Shown in pieces: positions 2,997 to 27,453 of a stretch of DNA of 28,432 nucleotides. Made by a program: the position numbers and the translations under genes. How positions within the stretch are numbered: the first letter of the stretch is position 1; each line of letters opens with the position of its first letter. The notes under the pieces are model-generated. The model was given only the letters and a program-made list of their open reading frames with translations, was not told the origin of the DNA and made no database searches. Source of the DNA: a virus (lineage: Duplodnaviria > Caudoviricetes); the IMG/VR virus record IMGVR_UViG_3300032190_000018, positions 1 to 28,432 of that record. One strand, given 5' to 3'.

Positions 2997-3485
2997 ATAG
3001 GTAAACGCGGACCCGCACCGAAACCGACCAACTTAAAACTGCTCCAGGGCAATCCGGGGAAACGGCCAATCAACCAGGACGAGCCCAAGCCGAAACCCAT
3101 TGCGCCGAAGCCTCCGGCCTGGTTACCGAAGGAAGCGAAGAAGATCTGGAAGCAGTTGGCTCCTAAGTTAGAACCACTTGCACTGTTGACCGAAATTGAT
3201 TTTCTTAATTTCCAAAATCTTTGTCTTGCAGCCGCTAGAGTAAAAGAGATGCAGCAGGTCCTTGAAGAGAAGGGCTTGGTCATGGAGATTGAAACAAACG
3301 CTGGCGCCATCTACTACCAGCAGCGCCCGGAGGTAGCCATCCTTCATAAGAACATGGAATTGGTCAACAAGCTCGGTGCCAAGTTCGGCCTCTCCCCGGC
3401 GGATCGGGTTGGCCTCGGCGTAAAGCCGAAACAGGAAAACAAGGACCCCTTCGAGGAGTTCTTGAGCCGTGGCAAGAAAGCCTAA
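2997..3485 (+). CDS. terS: terminase small subunit (P27 family), apparent ATA start
   Basis: Frame extends upstream of TTG 3156 through the canonical N-terminus GKRGPAPKPTNLKLLQGNPGKRPIN; C-terminus has KFGLSPADR. RBS AAGGGGGTG lies 6 nt before ATA 2997. Confidence 0.88.
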   Translation: MGKRGPAPKPTNLKLLQGNPGKRPINQDEPKPKPIAPKPPAWLPKEAKKIWKQLAPKLEPLALLTEIDFLNFQNLCLAAARVKEMQQVLEEKGLVMEIETNAGAIYYQQRPEVAILHKNMELVNKLGAKFGLSPADRVGLGVKPKQENKDPFEEFLSRGKKA

Positions 3486-18700: not shown

Positions 18701-19056
18701 AAACTTTCTACATTAATCCCGATACCGGTGACCTGGAATTTGACGGCCAGAACAATATTAAAATGGTTGAGGGCATCGAGGAAAAAGTACAATCCATGCG
18801 GCTTTTGTTCAGTACAAACCGTGGTGAATTTTTCTTAAACACCGGCCACGGTTTTGATTTTACCTACCTGCAGCAGAAGGCTCCGAGCATGGCCCGGATA
18901 ATGCTGGAGGTATACCAGACAGCCAAGCAGGACCCGCGGGTGAAAGAGGTCTATGACATATTTCCGGAGTTCGACAGGGCAACGCGCAAGTTAAAGGTGC
19001 CGTTCAAGGTACTGATGGATGATGGGAGTGTTGTTGAGAATGAGGTGAACGTCTAA
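18697..19056 (+). CDS. sheath initiator/baseplate gp25-like protein (DUF2634-like)
   Basis: TGDLEFD, TNRGEFFLNTGHG, DPRVKEV. Confidence 0.8.
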   Translation: MKTFYINPDTGDLEFDGQNNIKMVEGIEEKVQSMRLLFSTNRGEFFLNTGHGFDFTYLQQKAPSMARIMLEVYQTAKQDPRVKEVYDIFPEFDRATRKLKVPFKVLMDDGSVVENEVNV

Positions 19057-20258
19057 TGCCTTTTGGTTTAGGACCTGACGGCTTCACTCGTAAAAAGTAT
19101 GCGGATATAGTGGCCGACATGGAGGCCCGGGCCAGAAATCTTTTTGGTGAAAACGTAAACCTGTCCGAGCGCAGCCCGCTCGGTATTTTTATTAAGATTA
19201 TTGCCTGGAGCATTGCTCTGCTCTGGGAGCTTGCGGAAGCGGTGTATTATTCAGCTTTTATTGATACTTCTGAGGGCACTTCTCTTGACTATGCCTGTAA
19301 ATACGCTGGTATAGCACGAAAGCCAGCTAAAAAGGCCAGCGTAACACCAAGTGGCGATCCGGCGTATGTAAAATTTACAGGAGATGCGGGGACTACAGTT
19401 GCCCAAGGAAAGCGGGTCGCAACCGAAGACGGCGTTGAATTCGAGACACTAGAGGAAGTCACCCTGGACGCCGCTGGCGAGGCATACCCGAAAGTACAGG
19501 CGGTCGAGGCCGGGGAGCAGGGCAACGTGCCGGCCAATACAATTACCGTCATTATAAACCCGCAGGCTGGATTAAGCAGCGTAACTAACCCGGAAGAAAT
19601 AACCGGTGGCCAGGACGAAGAGACGGACGCAGAATTGCGGCAGCGCTATTATGATTCCCTGGCCAAGGGCGGCAGCTCGACTGTGGAAAGTATAAAGGCA
19701 GCGCTTTTGGAAGTGGATGGAGTAAAGGACGTCGTCATAAACGAAAACGACACTATCAACACCGTGGACGGGATACCGCCCAAGTCATTCGAGGTGCTTG
19801 TATACGGCGGAACAGATAATGATGTGGCGCAGGCAATATTCAATTCCAAGTCTGCCGGCATACAAAGCTATGGCAGCACAACTGTGGACATTACCGATAG
19901 CATGGGCAAGGTGCACACCATAGGCTTTACCCGGCCCATATTCAAGGATATATATGTGGATGTCACACTAACTACCAACGAGAATTTCCCGGTTGACGGC
20001 AAAACCCAGGTACAGACCGAAATTATTAAATACATCGGCGGTACTGACGCCAACGCGGAAGCTCATGACGGCCTGGGACTGGGCGAGGATGTCATACATT
20101 ACAAGGTCATCGCGGCCTGCAGTAACGTGCCGGGCATTACTGATTTGACCGTGCAGATAGGCTTTGCTGCAGATGCCCTTGGTACGGCCAATTTGGCTAT
20201 AGCAAGCAACGAGGTGGCGCAGACCAATACCACTAAAGTTACGGTGACGGTGGCTTAA
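19056..20258 (+). CDS. baseplate J/gp47-family wedge protein
   Basis: GLGPDGFTRK, EGTSLD, GEQGNVPANTI, GGQDEETDAELRQR, AQAIFNSKSAGI, IGFTRP. Confidence 0.93.
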   Translation: MPFGLGPDGFTRKKYADIVADMEARARNLFGENVNLSERSPLGIFIKIIAWSIALLWELAEAVYYSAFIDTSEGTSLDYACKYAGIARKPAKKASVTPSGDPAYVKFTGDAGTTVAQGKRVATEDGVEFETLEEVTLDAAGEAYPKVQAVEAGEQGNVPANTITVIINPQAGLSSVTNPEEITGGQDEETDAELRQRYYDSLAKGGSSTVESIKAALLEVDGVKDVVINENDTINTVDGIPPKSFEVLVYGGTDNDVAQAIFNSKSAGIQSYGSTTVDITDSMGKVHTIGFTRPIFKDIYVDVTLTTNENFPVDGKTQVQTEIIKYIGGTDANAEAHDGLGLGEDVIHYKVIAACSNVPGITDLTVQIGFAADALGTANLAIASNEVAQTNTTKVTVTVA

Positions 20259-20273: not shown

Positions 20274-20897
20274 TTGACTCAGTACAATGCTTATTTGAAT
20301 AAGGACAAGGCCGGCAAGCTGACTTCCGCGATTTATGTTGACGGGGTTGGCTGGGTTAATTTGGTGCAGAATTACGCTGTAACAGCTGGCGGGCTGCTGG
20401 TCCCGCTAAAAAGCGCTGGCGATGGGCGGCTCCTGGGGGACGCAAATTTGCAGATAGGGGATGCGGATGTTGGAAACACCAACCCCGTGCCGGCTAAAAT
20501 CGTGGACGCGAACGGGAACCCGGTGCAGTTGGTTGATAACGGGGATGGGACATATAGTATTCCTGCACGTATATTAAACGCGGTAGATACTAAGCCGTCG
20601 GATAGAGGGGCGCAAAACGTAGATATCTGCAGTGCCGCGGACACGTCTGGCGGAGTGACTGCAGCGCTCGGTAACTATAATCAGGCTACACTATATCTCG
20701 AATCTGCTGGGAGTATAAAGCTCACTGTGGAAGTATCACCTAACGGGGGAACGGACATATACGAAATACTTGAAAGTCCAATCATTTTAGATGCAGGAGA
20801 AAAGGTTGCGTATCCTTTTACCTATAAGGCGAACTGGATAAAAATAACTGGTTCGAATACATCGGCTGTTACAGCTAAAATACGGGGTATTTATTAA
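20274..20897 (+). CDS. putative tail/baseplate appendage protein with AT-richer C-terminal beta domain
   Basis: AAAGGAGG RBS with TTG start; Gly/Ala/Thr/Val-rich; NTNPVP and DNGDGTY motifs. Confidence 0.65.
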   Translation: MTQYNAYLNKDKAGKLTSAIYVDGVGWVNLVQNYAVTAGGLLVPLKSAGDGRLLGDANLQIGDADVGNTNPVPAKIVDANGNPVQLVDNGDGTYSIPARILNAVDTKPSDRGAQNVDICSAADTSGGVTAALGNYNQATLYLESAGSIKLTVEVSPNGGTDIYEILESPIILDAGEKVAYPFTYKANWIKITGSNTSAVTAKIRGIY

Positions 20898-20922
20898 CGC
20901 TAATATTTAGCGTTATTTATTT
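20895..20922 (+). terminator. hairpin plus U-tract
   Basis: TAACGCTAA-tat-TTAGCGTTA followed by TTTATTT. Confidence 0.6.
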
Positions 20923-20939
20923 TTACGGAGGTGTGTAAA

Positions 20940-21791
20940 ATGCCCGGAAGAAAATATAGTGTTCATTTCAATCAGAGCAAGTTAGGAGCTGGAGGCACGG
21001 CTGAATTCTTCCCTAATGCAGATACTTGGGTTAGCCCGTCAGCTAATTTGGGTGATGCAGGAGTTATTTTAACAACCACACCGCTGGGAGCAGATGCAAG
21101 TTACACCCAGGATTCACAGGATAGACTTGCACCGACTATGGAAGGGGATGTTTTCGCGTTCCCTGTGGGCAGTGTCCGTGGCCTGGTATGGGCCGACCAG
21201 GCCGGGACTTTGTACCTGGAGCAAAGTGACGATGATGCGGTATGGGAAACTGTTGCCAGTGTAGCCGTGAGCGCAAATACTACGACAGAACTTGACTGGT
21301 CTTCACTTTCTAAACGCTGGTATCGCTTTAGGTATGTTAACGGAGGGGTTGCTCAGGGTAGTTTTGTTTTAATTCAACAGGTTTCCGGGTTGGCGGTAAT
21401 TAAAACCAATACTAAGCTAACGGGCAGTTCACTTCAAGATTCACAAGCTATTCCTACAAGCAAAAAGCAAGCCGATGTATTAGCAAATGATGAAACCGGC
21501 ACAGTTACAGTTTTAGCTGGTGCGGTAAAAGGTTTAAATGATTATGTTGATTCTAGAAAATATTCAAAAATAACAGCACAAATACAATGGGATGCGGCAA
21601 TATCTCATAAGTTATATATAACTAGGCGCTCTAGTGGACAAACCATGACTTATGATGATGATACGGTTGATGTGACGCAACAAAAGACAATGAAAGAGTT
21701 TATAATAAAAAATGCAGAGTCAAGGATATTTGTTAAAAATAACGATGCTTCAGACCACACAATTAAATACGATGTATTGGGGTGGTACTAA
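20940..21791 (+). CDS. putative tail appendage protein; C-terminal ~120 aa encoded by a repeat-bounded cassette
   Basis: GGAGGTG RBS, ATG 20940; beta-sandwich-like N-half (ADQAGTLYLEQS, RWYRFRYVNG); composition shifts after NTKLTGS. Confidence 0.7.
   Translation: MPGRKYSVHFNQSKLGAGGTAEFFPNADTWVSPSANLGDAGVILTTTPLGADASYTQDSQDRLAPTMEGDVFAFPVGSVRGLVWADQAGTLYLEQSDDDAVWETVASVAVSANTTTELDWSSLSKRWYRFRYVNGGVAQGSFVLIQQVSGLAVIKTNTKLTGSSLQDSQAIPTSKKQADVLANDETGTVTVLAGAVKGLNDYVDSRKYSKITAQIQWDAAISHKLYITRRSSGQTMTYDDDTVDVTQQKTMKEFIIKNAESRIFVKNNDASDHTIKYDVLGWY
21409..21423 (+). repeat. candidate recombination site, left copy
   Basis: ATACTAAGCTAACGG, 13/15 identical to 22006-22020 in direct orientation. Confidence 0.6.
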
Positions 21792-22006
21792 TGACATTAG
21801 ATGAAATAAAAAATACCTTGCCAATAAATGAGTATGGCAATGTTTATATGGAACTTTTTGATTGTGAAATCCCACCAGAAGATTTTTTGGCGCGCTTTAA
21901 AGGTGCTGAATTAGCCTGTGCCTCGTTATCTGCTCATGTAAATGCTACACCTGGCTGGATACAGCAATTTGAAAAGTGGAGAGATGATGGGATTATCCCT
22001 GCTTGA
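21791..22006 (+). CDS. 71-aa acidic hypothetical protein (possible fibre chaperone/partner)
   Basis: TAATG overlap with the upstream gene, GGGGTGG RBS; stop overlaps the right repeat by 1 nt. Confidence 0.65.
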   Translation: MTLDEIKNTLPINEYGNVYMELFDCEIPPEDFLARFKGAELACASLSAHVNATPGWIQQFEKWRDDGIIPA

Positions 22007-22020
22007 TATTAAACTAACGG
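22006..22020 (+). repeat. candidate recombination site, right copy
   Basis: ATATTAAACTAACGG at the cassette stop codon, about 220 nt before the recombinase. Confidence 0.6.
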
Positions 22021-22075
22021 TGCCGCGCTAGCACAGGAAGAAAATTTAAAAATTTTCACTGGACACCTGCCCAGC

Positions 22076-22126
22076 AGAACAAATGTTTTAATTTGACGGC
22101 GCAAATGACGCATGGTATGGTATAAT
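22076..22126 (+). promoter_or_regulatory. LexA(SOS)-like box plus sigmaA promoter of the recombinase
   Basis: AGAAC-AAAT-GTTTT (22076-22089) resembles Firmicute CGAAC-RNRY-GTTCG. TTGACG (22093-22098) is 17 nt before TATGGT, and TG-n-TATAAT occupies 22118-22126. Confidence 0.55.
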
Positions 22127-22128
22127 GT

Positions 22129-22232
22129 AAGCAGGCTAGGCCGGCGTCGCGAACCGGCCGAAAGGCGCACCTGGAGGCGCTGCCTGCTTCTATCATCTCC
22201 AGGACCAAAAATACCTTGCTCCAGGGAGGTAT
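22129..22232 (+). ncRNA. structured 5' leader (three-way junction plus SD-sequestering hairpin)
   Basis: Stems AAGCAGGC/GCCTGCTT, GGCCGG/CCGGCC and GCGC/GCGC with loop ACCTGGAG. Two CTCCAGG complements lie at 22197-22203 and 22219-22225; ATACCT/AGGTAT stem covers the SD. Confidence 0.6.
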
Positions 22233-22238
22233 CATATC

Positions 22239-23078
22239 ATGCGTCTCTCCGAAGCATGGGAGGCCTATGCCGCGGACAAGCGGTTACTTGGCTATTCCCC
22301 TCACACTTTACGCGCCTATCGTTTACAATCTACCCTTTTAATTCGGCACCTCGGAGACATTGACATCCAAGAAGTCACGTTTGAACAGCTAAAAAAGTAT
22401 CTTGCAAGTCAGGAGCACCTTAAGCCTGCGTCAATCGGTCATCGAGTTCGCTTTCTTAAGTCACTTTTTAAGTGGGCTCACGATGAAGGCTTCATAACTG
22501 CAAACCCGGCATCAAAACTCAGGGAACCTAAAATGGGTACCAGGCTTCCGAAAGCACTTTCAGAAGAGGATGTTGAATTGCTTCGGGAGGCCTGTGAAAC
22601 ACCACTGGAACATGCCCTTATTGAATTCCTTTATACTACCGGCTGCCGGATTGGTGAGGTGGCCAGACTAAACCGGAATGCCATAGACTGGGAAACCAGG
22701 TCTGTGGTGGTTCGGGGGAAAGGCGATAAGGAGCGGGAGGTTTATTTCACTATCAAATGCGGCATATGGCTAAAGAGATATCTAAAACAGCGTAAAGACA
22801 ATGATGTGGCCCTATTTGTTACGGAACGAAAACCTCACCGTATGAGCATTGCCCAGATCCGATATATAATAAAGCGGGTGGCAAGGCGGGCGGGGATACA
22901 AACCAGCGTTTACCCGCATAAACTCCGCCACAGTTACGCCACACACCTGCTTAACAACGGGGCGCCGCTGGAAGGAATTCAAACCTTGCTTGGGCACTCG
23001 AAGCTGGAGACAACACGTCTATACGCCCAGTTGTCCGGCCCCCGGCGCAGAGAATTTTATCAAAGATACTTTAGATAA
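22239..23078 (+). CDS. XerC/D-like tyrosine recombinase
   Basis: N-terminal SAM-like domain (YSPHTLRAY, NPASKL); complete catalytic set TGCRIGE (R), GKGDK (K), HKLRH (HxxR), LGH, TRLY (Y); GGAGGT RBS. Confidence 0.95.
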   Translation: MRLSEAWEAYAADKRLLGYSPHTLRAYRLQSTLLIRHLGDIDIQEVTFEQLKKYLASQEHLKPASIGHRVRFLKSLFKWAHDEGFITANPASKLREPKMGTRLPKALSEEDVELLREACETPLEHALIEFLYTTGCRIGEVARLNRNAIDWETRSVVVRGKGDKEREVYFTIKCGIWLKRYLKQRKDNDVALFVTERKPHRMSIAQIRYIIKRVARRAGIQTSVYPHKLRHSYATHLLNNGAPLEGIQTLLGHSKLETTRLYAQLSGPRRREFYQRYFR

Positions 23079-23108
23079 CCACCATAACCACGGTGGTTAT
23101 TGTTTTTT
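23075..23108 (+). terminator. intrinsic terminator after the recombinase
   Basis: ATAACCACC-ataaccac-GGTGGTTAT followed by TGTTTTTT. Confidence 0.75.
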
Positions 23109-23122
23109 GAGGTGGTGCATAT

Positions 23123-23776
23123 ATGGCCGACGACCAAATACAATCGCTGGACATGGGCAATGAAGAGGGCGGCAATTACTCCTATACAATCTTAGACGGG
23201 ATGCTTGCCCGGCTGCCCAACCTTTTCGCAAAGACCGGCATTAGTAACATCGGCAAACTGTTCGACCTGGCCGCATCGGAACTTGAGGATCTCAAAATCG
23301 CATTCCGGACCATCCGGCAGTACCGGGACATCGACCAGGCCATCGGAGCAACGCTTGATCGAATAGGGGAAAACGTACAGGAAAGCAGGGGCCAAAAAAG
23401 CGAAGACCTGTACCGGCAGTTCATCAAGGCGAAGATCCGGGCCAACTTATCCTCGGGCGACATTGAAACCATCAATAACGTCGCCCGAGTTTTTGTTGGC
23501 GACAATTACGCCGGCCTGGAAGAGCTCTGGAACTTCGGTGGCAAGTATTACAACACGGAACCGGCCGGGATACTCTTGAAATTCTACGATACAGAAGAAA
23601 CCTACATTATCCCCTATGAAGCAATGGACCGGGTTGTGGCAGCCGGGGTAAAAGCTCTATGGGAAATGACGCACAGGACAAACGAGGTGCAACTGGAAGG
23701 CAGCTACGCGGCCTACGATCTTATATACCCTTACTGCGGTACTTTTTACGCCGGGCAGGAGCTTGGAGGGTTGTAA
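23123..23776 (+). CDS. baseplate wedge 2 protein (DUF2612/P2 gpI-like)
   Basis: RDIDQAIGATLDRIGENV..R, YRQFIKAKIRANLSSG, VVAAGV motifs; this family normally follows baseplate J. Confidence 0.8.
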   Translation: MADDQIQSLDMGNEEGGNYSYTILDGMLARLPNLFAKTGISNIGKLFDLAASELEDLKIAFRTIRQYRDIDQAIGATLDRIGENVQESRGQKSEDLYRQFIKAKIRANLSSGDIETINNVARVFVGDNYAGLEELWNFGGKYYNTEPAGILLKFYDTEETYIIPYEAMDRVVAAGVKALWEMTHRTNEVQLEGSYAAYDLIYPYCGTFYAGQELGGL

Positions 23777-24986: not shown

Positions 24987-26084
24987 ATGCCTATTAGCAT
25001 TCCTGAGTCTGAAAGAAAAGGATTGTCGTCTGACATTGTAGTGCCTCACGGAGCGAGTATCCCTACTTACGGAAGCGCTATGGCAGTTGCCGAAGTTGAT
25101 GGGATTATATATTTTATTGGAGGATATAACAGGGATGTCCAATACTCACAATTAAATGAAGCCTATGACCCGGTAACGGATACTTGGACAACTAAGGCGC
25201 CGATGCCTACGGGCAGAGAATTCTGCAAAGCTGGGGTGATAAATAGTAAGATATATGTTTATGGTGGTTATAACGGTGCTTATTTAGGTACTCTTGAAGA
25301 ATACGATCCAGCAACAAATTCTTGGACATCTAAAACAGGGGCCACCGCAAGGTATCAATTTGCGCTATGTGTGTTAAATGGCGTTCTTCACGCATTTGCA
25401 GGACATGATGGTTCGGCTGCCATCACGACACACGAAATTTACGACCCAGTTACAGATACCTGGACATCAAAAGCTCCATATCCGCAAGCATTTTATGACT
25501 TAAGTGGAGCAGCAACAGATACAAAAGTATATGGATTTGGTGGTATAGCTGCTAACGGCTATGGAAGTGCTCTTTGTTATGAGTATGACCCGTCGAGCGA
25601 TACTTGGGCTCAAAAAGCGGACATGTTAAAACAGGCTTATGGAGCAGAAGCAGTTGAATTGAATGGTTTAATATACGTTTTAGGCGGACATTATGGATCA
25701 GGTACTGCATATGATGATGTTCAAATATATGACCCGGCGACGGATACATGGGAATATGGAGTGGAAATGCCAACTGCGAAGTTCGATTTTCATGCAGTAG
25801 TTTCCGGACAGAAAATATACTGTTTACAAAAAGGTATTCCATATAGTCTAGAAATATTTGACCCTGAAAAAGTAAATACTGTTGAGCTTATAAGAAGCGA
25901 TAGTAATGTGATAGTTAGCATTACGAAAACACCTATACCGTTAGAAATATACGATATTGACGGCTTGGTGGGTACTTATGATGTAGGTACTTATGGCCCT
26001 TTCGTGGGGCCGGTTACTGTTAAAGTCCCTAAAGAGAGGGCATGGTCTAGAGCGAGTACCAAGGCCGCAGTTGTTTTATATTAA
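24987..26084 (+). CDS. Kelch-repeat beta-propeller protein, candidate receptor-binding tail protein
   Basis: About six repeats of IY(F/V)xGG...YDPxTDTW (e.g. IYFIGG/YDPVTDTW, IYVYGG/YDPATNSW, IYVLGG/YDPATDTW). Confidence 0.88.
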   Translation: MPISIPESERKGLSSDIVVPHGASIPTYGSAMAVAEVDGIIYFIGGYNRDVQYSQLNEAYDPVTDTWTTKAPMPTGREFCKAGVINSKIYVYGGYNGAYLGTLEEYDPATNSWTSKTGATARYQFALCVLNGVLHAFAGHDGSAAITTHEIYDPVTDTWTSKAPYPQAFYDLSGAATDTKVYGFGGIAANGYGSALCYEYDPSSDTWAQKADMLKQAYGAEAVELNGLIYVLGGHYGSGTAYDDVQIYDPATDTWEYGVEMPTAKFDFHAVVSGQKIYCLQKGIPYSLEIFDPEKVNTVELIRSDSNVIVSITKTPIPLEIYDIDGLVGTYDVGTYGPFVGPVTVKVPKERAWSRASTKAAVVLY

Positions 26085-26629: not shown

Positions 26630-26812
26630 TTGAATACAGATGAACGCCTGGCCATCCTGGAATCGGAGGTGGCCCATTTGAAAACGCGCGATCAGCAGCT
26701 AAACGGTAGCATCCAGAAGGTCGAAGCCATGGTGTGGAGAATGTGCCTCGGGCTTTTCGCGGTGATGGGCGGCGTAATAGCCACCTTTATTGCCGTGGTG
26801 TGGGAAAAATGA
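26630..26812 (+). CDS. XhlA-like/holin-like membrane protein
   Basis: AGGGGGTG RBS, TTG 26630; coiled coil (ERLAILESEVAHLK) followed by one C-terminal TM helix; first gene of the lysis cassette. Confidence 0.7.
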   Translation: MNTDERLAILESEVAHLKTRDQQLNGSIQKVEAMVWRMCLGLFAVMGGVIATFIAVVWEK

Positions 26813-27453
26813 CTACTATACTTGCCATCGCGCCGGTCATAGTCCTGCTGGTGTATTTCTATTGTCAAGATCGTTACGACAAAGAGCCTTTGTCCAAGCT
26901 TGCCGAGGCTTTTTTTGTTGGTATGATCGTGGTGTTACAGATTCAGTACCTACAGGACCTCTTACTCGACATCAGCACGCACATAGCATGGCAGGCTTTT
27001 ATTGTGGCGGGCCTGGTTGAAGAAGGCATTAAGCTTATGGCATTAAGATTCACCATTTACCGGGACAAACACTTTAACGAGCAGGTGGACGGCATTATCT
27101 ATGCCGTTTTTTTGGGCCTTGGTTTTGCCTTGGCCGAAACAATTGTCCTATCAGTTGACCATTCAACCAGCATTGTCCGGGCGGTTACCGCTGTCCCGGC
27201 ACATGCCATGTTCGCCTGCGTGATGGGCTATTACCTGGGTAAGTACAAATTCCACAGTAAAAGAAACCTGCTAGCTTACGCTTTATTTGTACCTGCGGTT
27301 TTACATGGGGTATATAACTATCTCTTGATGTGCGGCCATACCTGGGCGCTGATTTCGTTTGTACCGTATCTCATAGCCCTCTGGGTAATCGGTATCAGGG
27401 ATACGGATATTCACCTGAGAAACTCAAGGTTTAGGAGGAAATCCAATGTTTAA
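26809..27453 (+). CDS. prsW: PrsW-family intramembrane protease
   Basis: ATGA overlap start at 26809; DRYDKEP, AGLVEEGIK (EExxK), DGIIYAVFLGLGFALAE (FxxxE), VPAHAMF, LHGVYN (HxxxN); several TM segments. Confidence 0.9.
   Translation: MTTILAIAPVIVLLVYFYCQDRYDKEPLSKLAEAFFVGMIVVLQIQYLQDLLLDISTHIAWQAFIVAGLVEEGIKLMALRFTIYRDKHFNEQVDGIIYAVFLGLGFALAETIVLSVDHSTSIVRAVTAVPAHAMFACVMGYYLGKYKFHSKRNLLAYALFVPAVLHGVYNYLLMCGHTWALISFVPYLIALWVIGIRDTDIHLRNSRFRRKSNV

Follow-up and report, generated by a model that had tools for sequence, protein, structure and literature searches.

An int-alpA leader RNA with a two-site address loop, a palindromic P2 loop and a predicted outer helix ahead of a phage tyrosine recombinase gene

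The recombinase locus in the phage late region

The window analyzed here, the whole stretch of 28,432 nucleotides from a virus of the Caudoviricetes (IMG/VR record IMGVR_UViG_3300032190_000018), is a phage late region in which the terminase, portal, major head, tail sheath, tape measure, and baseplate J genes lie on the plus strand. Downstream of baseplate J (19056-20258), and ahead of the following baseplate gene (23123-23776), lie three open reading frames (ORFs) without a named family and a gene encoding a Xer-like tyrosine recombinase of 279 amino acids (22239..23078, plus strand; PF00589, E 7e-38). Inspection by eye located its R-K-HxxR-H-Y residues, which we take to be the catalytic residues of tyrosine recombinases. 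The three ORFs and the recombinase gene (20274-23078) split a baseplate J/DUF2612 gene pair, and a terminator-like hairpin is predicted from sequence at the end of this cassette (23074..23109, plus strand). The genes upstream of the recombinase in homologous loci are variable and of late type; hence, the recombinase may take up or rearrange virion genes. Further downstream, the window encodes a Kelch-repeat beta-propeller protein in tail-fibre position (24987-26084) and, directly ahead of the endolysin, a PrsW-family intramembrane protease (26734-27453). Both are unusual cargo for a lysis region.

A sigma-70/sigma-A promoter (TTGACG-17-TATGGT, with TG before the -10 element) is predicted at 22093..22121 on the plus strand. 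Its 3' end lies 7 nt ahead of helix P1 of the RNA leader described below, and with a predicted start at about 22128-22129 we infer that transcription begins at P1. An alternative extended -10 element, TGGTATAAT at 22118-22126, would place the start at about 22133. Most homologous leaders carry TG-n-TA..T at 7-8 nt ahead of P1, and their start sites are likewise predictions.

An exact 13-nt direct repeat, AAAAATACCTTGC, occurs at 21809-21821, inside the ORF at 21782-22006, and again at 22207-22219, in an arm of the hairpin over the Shine-Dalgarno (SD) sequence. An imperfect palindrome, AACTAAC-N6/8-GTTAGTT, was observed upstream of the recombinase genes of many relatives. Further copies separate small divergent genes in Bacillaceae loci, an arrangement like that of the recombination sites in an integron-style cassette array. 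Recorded positions are L035:2547, 2896, and 5981; L030:2255 and 6261; L028:1413; and L081:2816. At the corresponding position of the window (22007-22030), only the left half is present (ATTAAACTAACGG), right after the stop codon of the ORF at 21782-22006. The motif AACTA[AT]C falls at most 260 nt upstream in 12/23 loci with the RNA leader (RNA-type) and in 28/103 other loci. A literature search on this type of palindrome returned no specific match.

Leader anatomy and the int-alpA family

The covariance model of int-alpA RNA (Rfam RF02996) matches 22129..22203 on the plus strand, a segment comprising a three-way junction of helices P1, P2, and P3 together with a downstream site, here called site 1. 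P1 pairs AAGCAGGC (22129-22136) with GCCUGCUU (22182-22189). P2 pairs GGCCGG (22139-22144) with CCGGCC (22154-22159), and P3 pairs GCGC (22165-22168) with GCGC (22177-22180), to which G22164.U22181 is added. The P3 loop, or address loop (ACCUGGAG, 22169..22176, plus strand), displays CCUGGAG. The complement CUCCAGG occurs at site 1 (22197..22203, plus strand), 7 nt past P1, which is the predicted cis pseudoknot partner (decoy), and at site 2 (22219-22225). Site 2 is held by a plus-strand hairpin (AUACCU 22211-22216 / AGGUAU 22227-22232) over the SD sequence GGAGGU (22225-22230, plus strand), and the AUG follows at 22239, so that the PF00589 gene begins 50 nt past P1. The first-pass annotation of this DNA had already described the three stems, the loop with its two complements, and the hairpin over the SD, and all of its coordinates hold. 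It did not mention that the P2 loop is palindromic or that an outer helix is predicted over the AUG; both are treated below.

That annotation could not assign the element to a known family, and in this it was mistaken. It had proposed an Rfam scan and had conceded that a match would remove novelty. The scan returned int-alpA at 35.9 bits, marginal against the gathering score of 35.8, as the only match in 21900-22400 at E up to 10. Among 12 homologous loci, RF02996 scored above the cut-off in two (39.3 and 36.5) and below it in one (31.3), with no match at E up to 1 in the other nine. Despite the marginal score, the leader is filed as a divergent int-alpA member because the junction letters and the layout agree: its junction bases CUAG, CGAAA, and CUG are those of the Rfam entry, which is typed as 'Gene; sRNA'. 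The Rfam consensus also shows a CCU loop and an AGG tail that corresponds to site 1. Its 71-position model ends at site 1 and contains no pseudoknot; site 2 with the SD, the SD hairpin, the P2 palindrome, and the outer helix (P0) lie outside the model or are unannotated in it. Compared with int-alpA, leaders of the recombinase clade have a longer P2 (6 bp plus a 9-nt loop), a site spacing of about 20 nt versus 13.5, and P0. The family name refers to integrase and mobile-element genes, and the leader fits, with a PF00589 gene downstream. Judged by these comparisons, the leader is real and conserved and belongs to a catalogued family for which no function has been described; what is new relative to the known int-alpA RNA is the predicted promoter-to-AUG lock.

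The int-alpA motif presumably belongs to the 224 motifs reported by Weinberg et al. 2017. A term search of the main text of PMC5737381 did not find the motif named; site 1, site 2, or the palindrome may already be recorded in the supplement, which lay outside that search, and the novelty would then be lower. Literature searches for 'int-alpA' and 'RF02996' returned no mechanism for the family, and the latter term returned no match at all. In the available portions of two papers, int-alpA is an entry in a genome annotation table, not studied there (PMC12370729), and the words 'int-alpA' denote a gene module (PMC13612085). A search of the literature on RNA dimers and phage translation found nothing about int-alpA.

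This orphan Rfam family proves common in phages. About 640 stored stretches are estimated for one strict pattern, and BLAST matches include phages of E. coli, Klebsiella, Salmonella, Vibrio, and Pseudomonas. Genome sweeps detected RF02996 in 4 of 151 class genomes and model R1 in 2 of 151 order genomes, the virus's own genome counted. A degenerate motif search across loci gave no matches. Matches of a clade-specific pattern in viral contigs were mostly due to chance, as the RNA model confirmed four of the first 100 loci, one of which duplicates L081, and none of the other 20.

Address loop, palindromic P2 loop and outer helix

Relatives of the recombinase were collected at 182 loci, of which 159 had usable upstream DNA, yielding 144 distinct leaders. 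A subset of these leaders contains the same RNA with other loop letters (CCUGGAG, CCCGCAG, CCCUGAG, CUCCUGG, CCUUGG, and CCCGUAG). Removal of L159 (variant form), L189 (distant), and L283 (duplicate) from a 30-row clade alignment left 26 distinct leaders. The pairs of P1, P2, and P3 are kept at 94.6-96.5%, with two-sided changes in 13 of 17 pairs, in an alignment that was itself fitted to the structure. The folding energy of 22120-22250 alone is unremarkable (z -1.40), and the case for the leader is therefore built on covariation.

The covariation check suggested in the first-pass annotation, on leaders of homologous recombinases, bears the loop pairing out. The P3 loop covaries with both downstream sites, each reaching at least 6 Watson-Crick pairs in 25/26 distinct clade leaders; this level was reached at both sites in 7/498 control cross-pairs with a different loop address. 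Within the window, the P3-loop locus is the sole place on either strand with a 7-mer complemented twice 15-70 nt downstream, and CTCCAGG occurs on the plus strand only at 3042, 22197, and 22219. None of the four held-out clade leaders (L184, L226, L267, and the second L135 copy) fails the two-site test. Because 22 of the 26 clade leaders had been picked by eye, an independent family test was made. Its pattern combined junction and stem letters, free of loop or tail letters, and recovered 120 viral loci, 19 of 20 tested exceeding the int-alpA cut-off. The set contained 107 distinct members, of which 18 were dropped (17 with fewer than 5/7 P1 pairs, one with a short tail), and provided 46 distinct P3 loops. 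One site reaches at least 5 Watson-Crick pairs for 43/46 loops. A second site does so for 32/46, against a swapped-loop null with a mean of 5% and a maximum of 15.6%.

The positions and strengths of the two sites are similarly regular. Site 1 starts at a median of 14 nt (12-17) from the junction in the 46 family members, independent of P1 length. The sites are equal in strength, at -8.3 (site 1) and -8.2 kcal/mol (site 2) for the 46 family loops and at -13.5 versus -13.3 kcal/mol in the 26 clade leaders. Since site 1 is nearer, transcribed first, and as strong as site 2, it would be favoured in cis. The arms of the SD hairpin change together in homologs (AUACC/GGUAU versus ACCAA/UUGGU), and a hairpin loop often presents site 2. 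With site 1 captured, opening the SD costs a median of 4.9 kcal/mol, and 8.5 kcal/mol in the window. For site 1 or the linker as a dedicated anti-SD, the opening cost is 6.2 when free, 4.9 when captured, and 5.9 when shuffled.

From this arrangement, the first-pass annotation had proposed a two-state translational switch. The covariation at both sites supports control of translation between two states by the P3 loop, as does the location of site 2, which ends at a median of 7 nt before the start codon in the 46 family members. The ON state would be weak, and a plain throttle fits as well, because the SD is costly to open even with site 1 captured. P1 was also considered as an intrinsic terminator and rejected for most members, as at least 5 U within the 8 nt after P1 are found in only 7/46. 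An extension of P1 over the -10 spacer is modest in the clade (3.65 versus 2.84 pairs of 8) and not significant family-wide (p 0.11).

The P2 loop (22145..22153, plus strand) has a 2+6+1 nt layout and contains the self-complementary hexamer UCGCGA (22147-22152), unpaired in the predicted fold of the leader and a predicted dimer contact. Clade P2 loops share this layout, with UCGCGA, UGAUCA, UAGCUA, UCAUGA, or UGCGCA as the hexamer. A 6-nt palindrome is found in 13/17 distinct clade loops, compared with a mean of 1.6 and a maximum of 6 after shuffling, and an imperfect hexamer ending in CUC occurs in 5/20 clade members. The two adjacent central bases are GC in 15, AU in 12, and CG in 1 of 29 rows, and hence complementary in 28/29. 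This covariation is not explicable within one strand, because neighbouring bases cannot pair there. The hexamer underwent 12 changes on a 20-leaf quick tree, with clustering no greater than for shuffled labels. Family-wide, a palindrome of at least 4 nt is present in 26/34 short P2s (null 15.4, maximum 25), as extracted by a regular expression that is biased towards palindromes; clade P2 loops were taken from fixed columns instead. A GACG tetraloop is found in 5/34 family P2s and neither a 4-nt palindrome nor GACG in 6/34. P3 loops are palindrome-poor (11/46 versus a null of 20). A palindromic P2 loop that changes identity yet remains self-complementary points to RNA dimers. A DNA-level cause, such as methylation or restriction sites, is possible but would require a different enzyme for each set of letters.

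Retroviral dimer signals provide a parallel of unrelated ancestry. The HIV-1 DIS likewise presents a six-base palindrome in an apical loop, and other int-alpA members carry GACG tetraloops as do Moloney retroviruses, in which these form two-pair kissing dimers (PMC7357161). According to the portion of that source available, conserved flanking purines are required in the HIV-1 DIS, whereas those of the clade P2 are not conserved (5' CG, AU, CC, UC, AC, AG, or GC; 3' A or C). The proposed purpose in the phage leader would be translation control, not packaging.

The outer helix P0 would enclose the entire element. Its 5' arm (22107..22123, plus strand) overlaps the -10 region and precedes the predicted start; it would thus occur only in read-through transcripts, so that promoter-born mRNA would lack P0. 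The 3' arm (22229..22245, plus strand) covers the 3' edge of the SD, the spacer, the AUG, and two further codons. The inverted repeat (22107-22122 / 22230-22245) contains two mismatches, both G.U, and folding of 22080-22270 yields a helix of 17 bp that encloses the complete element (z -3.89 with P0). A duplex of -14 kcal/mol or better is present in 22/28 RNA-type loci, 1/12 loci with a divergent repressor gene (repressor-type), and 4/85 others; a wider search window gives 22/28, 2/12, and 4/89, respectively. At least 10 of 16 pairs form in 21/26 distinct clade pairs, and P0 is weak in 5/26 clade leaders. The central ten columns (21 pairs) comprise 178 Watson-Crick, 19 G.U, 5 A.C, and 8 other cells, and the excess of G.U over A.C favours RNA over DNA operators. 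Own partners form 12.1 pairs versus 11.2 for permuted ones (permuted maximum 12.0), and this conservation is inflated because the 5' arm overlaps the conserved -10 element. P0 was not found in the wider int-alpA family (p 0.37).

Transcription is predicted to be able to enter the element in the window, where co-oriented late genes lie upstream and no plus-strand terminator-like site was found from 21700 up to the leader (21700-22100 for the entry prediction). The upstream gene is co-oriented in 15/18 RNA-type, 9/11 repressor-type, and 18/80 other loci. That repressor-type loci are mostly co-oriented yet lack P0 counts against insulation. The predicted helix would bury the AUG in read-through transcripts from upstream late genes. 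A clade-type leader with P0 was also observed at L184:1486-1612, ahead of a different, 335-aa integrase, which suggests that the leader moved between recombinase families.

Fold-back protection from outside promoters was reportedly described for IS10/Tn10 by Davis, Simons and Kleckner in 1985. P0 resembles that mechanism in that only promoter-born transcripts would be translated. T4 I-TevI likewise hides its translation signals in a helix that uses sequence upstream of its own promoter, as stated in the available portion of PMC2988022. In contrast to both, P0 spans about 105 nt, encloses a second structured regulator, and covers the AUG but no more of the SD than its 3' edge, and its long transcripts would stem from predicted late-operon read-through.

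Sister loci differ in the type of upstream control. A quick tree was built from 75 of 126 recombinases, comprising all RNA-type and repressor-type rows and 40 random others. In one group of 36 rows (support 91), 23 leaders are RNA-type, 11 are repressor-type, and 2 are of other kinds, with the types interleaved. Switches of leader type in this group amount to 8 and 9 changes, of which the starred branches force only 2 and 3, on a quick tree whose kin within the group are not independent. Among 11 divergent ORFs scanned, seven match HTH_26 above the cut-off, three match RHH_1 weakly, and one matches DUF7120 weakly; a twelfth repressor-type locus (L116) was labelled from repeats only. The RNA model matched none of the 12 repressor-type loci. 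This distribution suggests that the RNA leader does the job of a repressor, which sister recombinases carry as a divergent gene instead.

Models of translational control

The leader likely keeps the recombinase scarce, probably through pairing with a second leader copy and silencing of transcripts that enter from upstream genes. As a complete model, a protein-free translational damper tightened by self-dimerisation and insulated by P0 against read-through is given slightly less than an even chance. In a lone transcript, the P3 loop would sit on the nearer site 1, allowing low translation. Pairing of two leaders through their palindromic P2 loops would shift the P3 loop to site 2 on the SD; the loop would be supplied by a decay fragment in which it is free, or the junction would open. 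One of these routes is needed for repression because two full-length leaders hold two loops and four sites; a U-tract after P1 that could give the short form is limited to 7/46 family members. We infer that leaders dimerise in the cell, with repression and not activation as the result. P0 would bury the AUG in transcripts running in from the phage late genes, leaving late read-through mRNA silent. A small burst of recombinase would thus follow entry into a new cell, with damping as the RNA builds up, a task likely done by the divergent HTH/RHH repressor in sister loci.

A broader reading extends this logic to the whole family and is possible, on the doubtful side. There, int-alpA would be a widespread self-sensing riboswitch that has another copy of itself as its ligand, with P2 dimers shifting the loop from decoy to SD. 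Translation of hazardous DNA-acting genes would track the RNA level without any protein, and the P2 and P3 letters would constitute two interchangeable address codes. Within the recombinase clade, the module together with the promoter-to-AUG lock would replace a protein repressor. If dimer control is true, the leader represents a natural RNA-only concentration sensor with programmable addresses, relevant to phage gene-dosage control and synthetic biology. If it is false, a compact insulator and damper for selfish genes remains, interchangeable with a small repressor.

Among the alternatives, a static throttle is unlikely but retains appreciable weight. The loop would partition in cis between the decoy site 1 and site 2 at the SD, giving low constant translation, and the P2 palindrome would serve something else, such as stability or a protein or DNA-level site; insulation by P0 may still hold. 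The equal strength of the two sites, the SD hairpin that makes the SD costly to open in every state, and the lack of a good palindrome in some members all agree with such a throttle. It does not account for adjacent P2 bases covarying as self-complementary pairs over some 12 changes, and it leaves the GACG loops unexplained.

The same covariation and palindrome can also be read in the opposite sense, as a dimer-activated switch, which is decidedly unlikely. The loop of a monomer would be unable to reach site 1 and would sit on site 2 (OFF), whereas in P2 dimers each loop would take the partner's site 1 and free the SDs, turning translation ON at high transcript levels during lytic growth. No short form would be necessary, two tail genes are among the targets, and linkers of 4-5 nt occur that would be short if P3 stacks on P1. 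However, site 1 matches site 2 in strength, lies closer, and is synthesised first, and the predicted silencing of abundant late transcripts by P0 in the clade fits badly with activation at that stage.

The P1 c4 RNA forms the structured 5' end of a phage transcript and controls expression by pairing with its own mRNA. The P4 CI RNA and the Gifsy-1 IsrK RNA are likewise structured 5' ends that pair with their own mRNA, according to the available portion of PMC4825925. A trans antisense RNA of this kind, in which a processed P1-P3 fragment would build up and cover both sites on new transcripts with no role for P2 dimers, is improbable for the present leader. Phage leader RNAs with three arms that target their own mRNA do exist, int-alpA is typed as an sRNA, and site 2 is frequently displayed in a hairpin loop, all of which speaks in favour of it. 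Most members have no terminator after P1, and the palindrome would be left without an explanation. The first-pass annotation had raised the likeness to c4 and CI, which can be retained only as a loose analogy: no C4, c4-2, or isrK match was found in 21900-22400 at E up to 10, and the predicted transcription start coincides with P1. Moreover, both targets of the leader lie downstream, whereas the CI RNA has one upstream and one downstream target in the portion of PMC4825925 available. The leader further differs from CI, c4, and IsrK in using one short loop against two identical downstream targets and in its palindromic P2.

Scanning 58 of the 78 ORFs behind family leaders identified 10 nucleases, 6 replication proteins, 2 methyltransferases, 2 regulators, 1 integrase, 2 tail proteins, and 6 unknown families, with 29 giving no match. 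With nucleases, replication proteins, integrases, and tail genes downstream, and hence no shared metabolic theme, a small-molecule riboswitch is unlikely. Binding of a metabolite, an ion, or a host or phage protein to the junction (CUAG, CGAAA, CUG), which would then choose the site, is the least probable of these readings together with P0 arms acting as inverted DNA operators: the strong conservation of the junction bases is circular because the collecting pattern fixed those letters, and the conserved inverted repeat at promoter and start codon shows the G.U over A.C bias that favours RNA. Readings as a hammerhead, a bridge RNA, or an ssDNA origin were set aside, given that the second target is linked to the SD.

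Several loci display further variation. Variant leaders at L095:2585-2712, L125:957-1084, and L159:2876-3003 have a long P3 with the loop CCUGUUU, two AAACAGG sites, and a palindromic P2 (UAGCUA, UUGCAA), and the clade model matches them barely or not at all. Two leader copies per locus occur in L135 (2876-3003 and 5014-5140) and in L333 (1494-1566 and 2081-2150). The L135 copies share the palindrome and nearly the address, the second lying ahead of a frame of only 26 codons, and the L333 copies differ in their P2 loops. The homolog L338 gave 0 reads in two raw-read RNA runs. Contigs from six runs overlap parts of it, and such contigs are uninformative on ends, strand, or level. In one contig of run X10, 375 nt of this locus (L338:1483-1859), comprising the int-alpA leader and a small gene, are missing, and 20 other letters stand in their place; hence, leader and gene behave as an exchangeable cassette.
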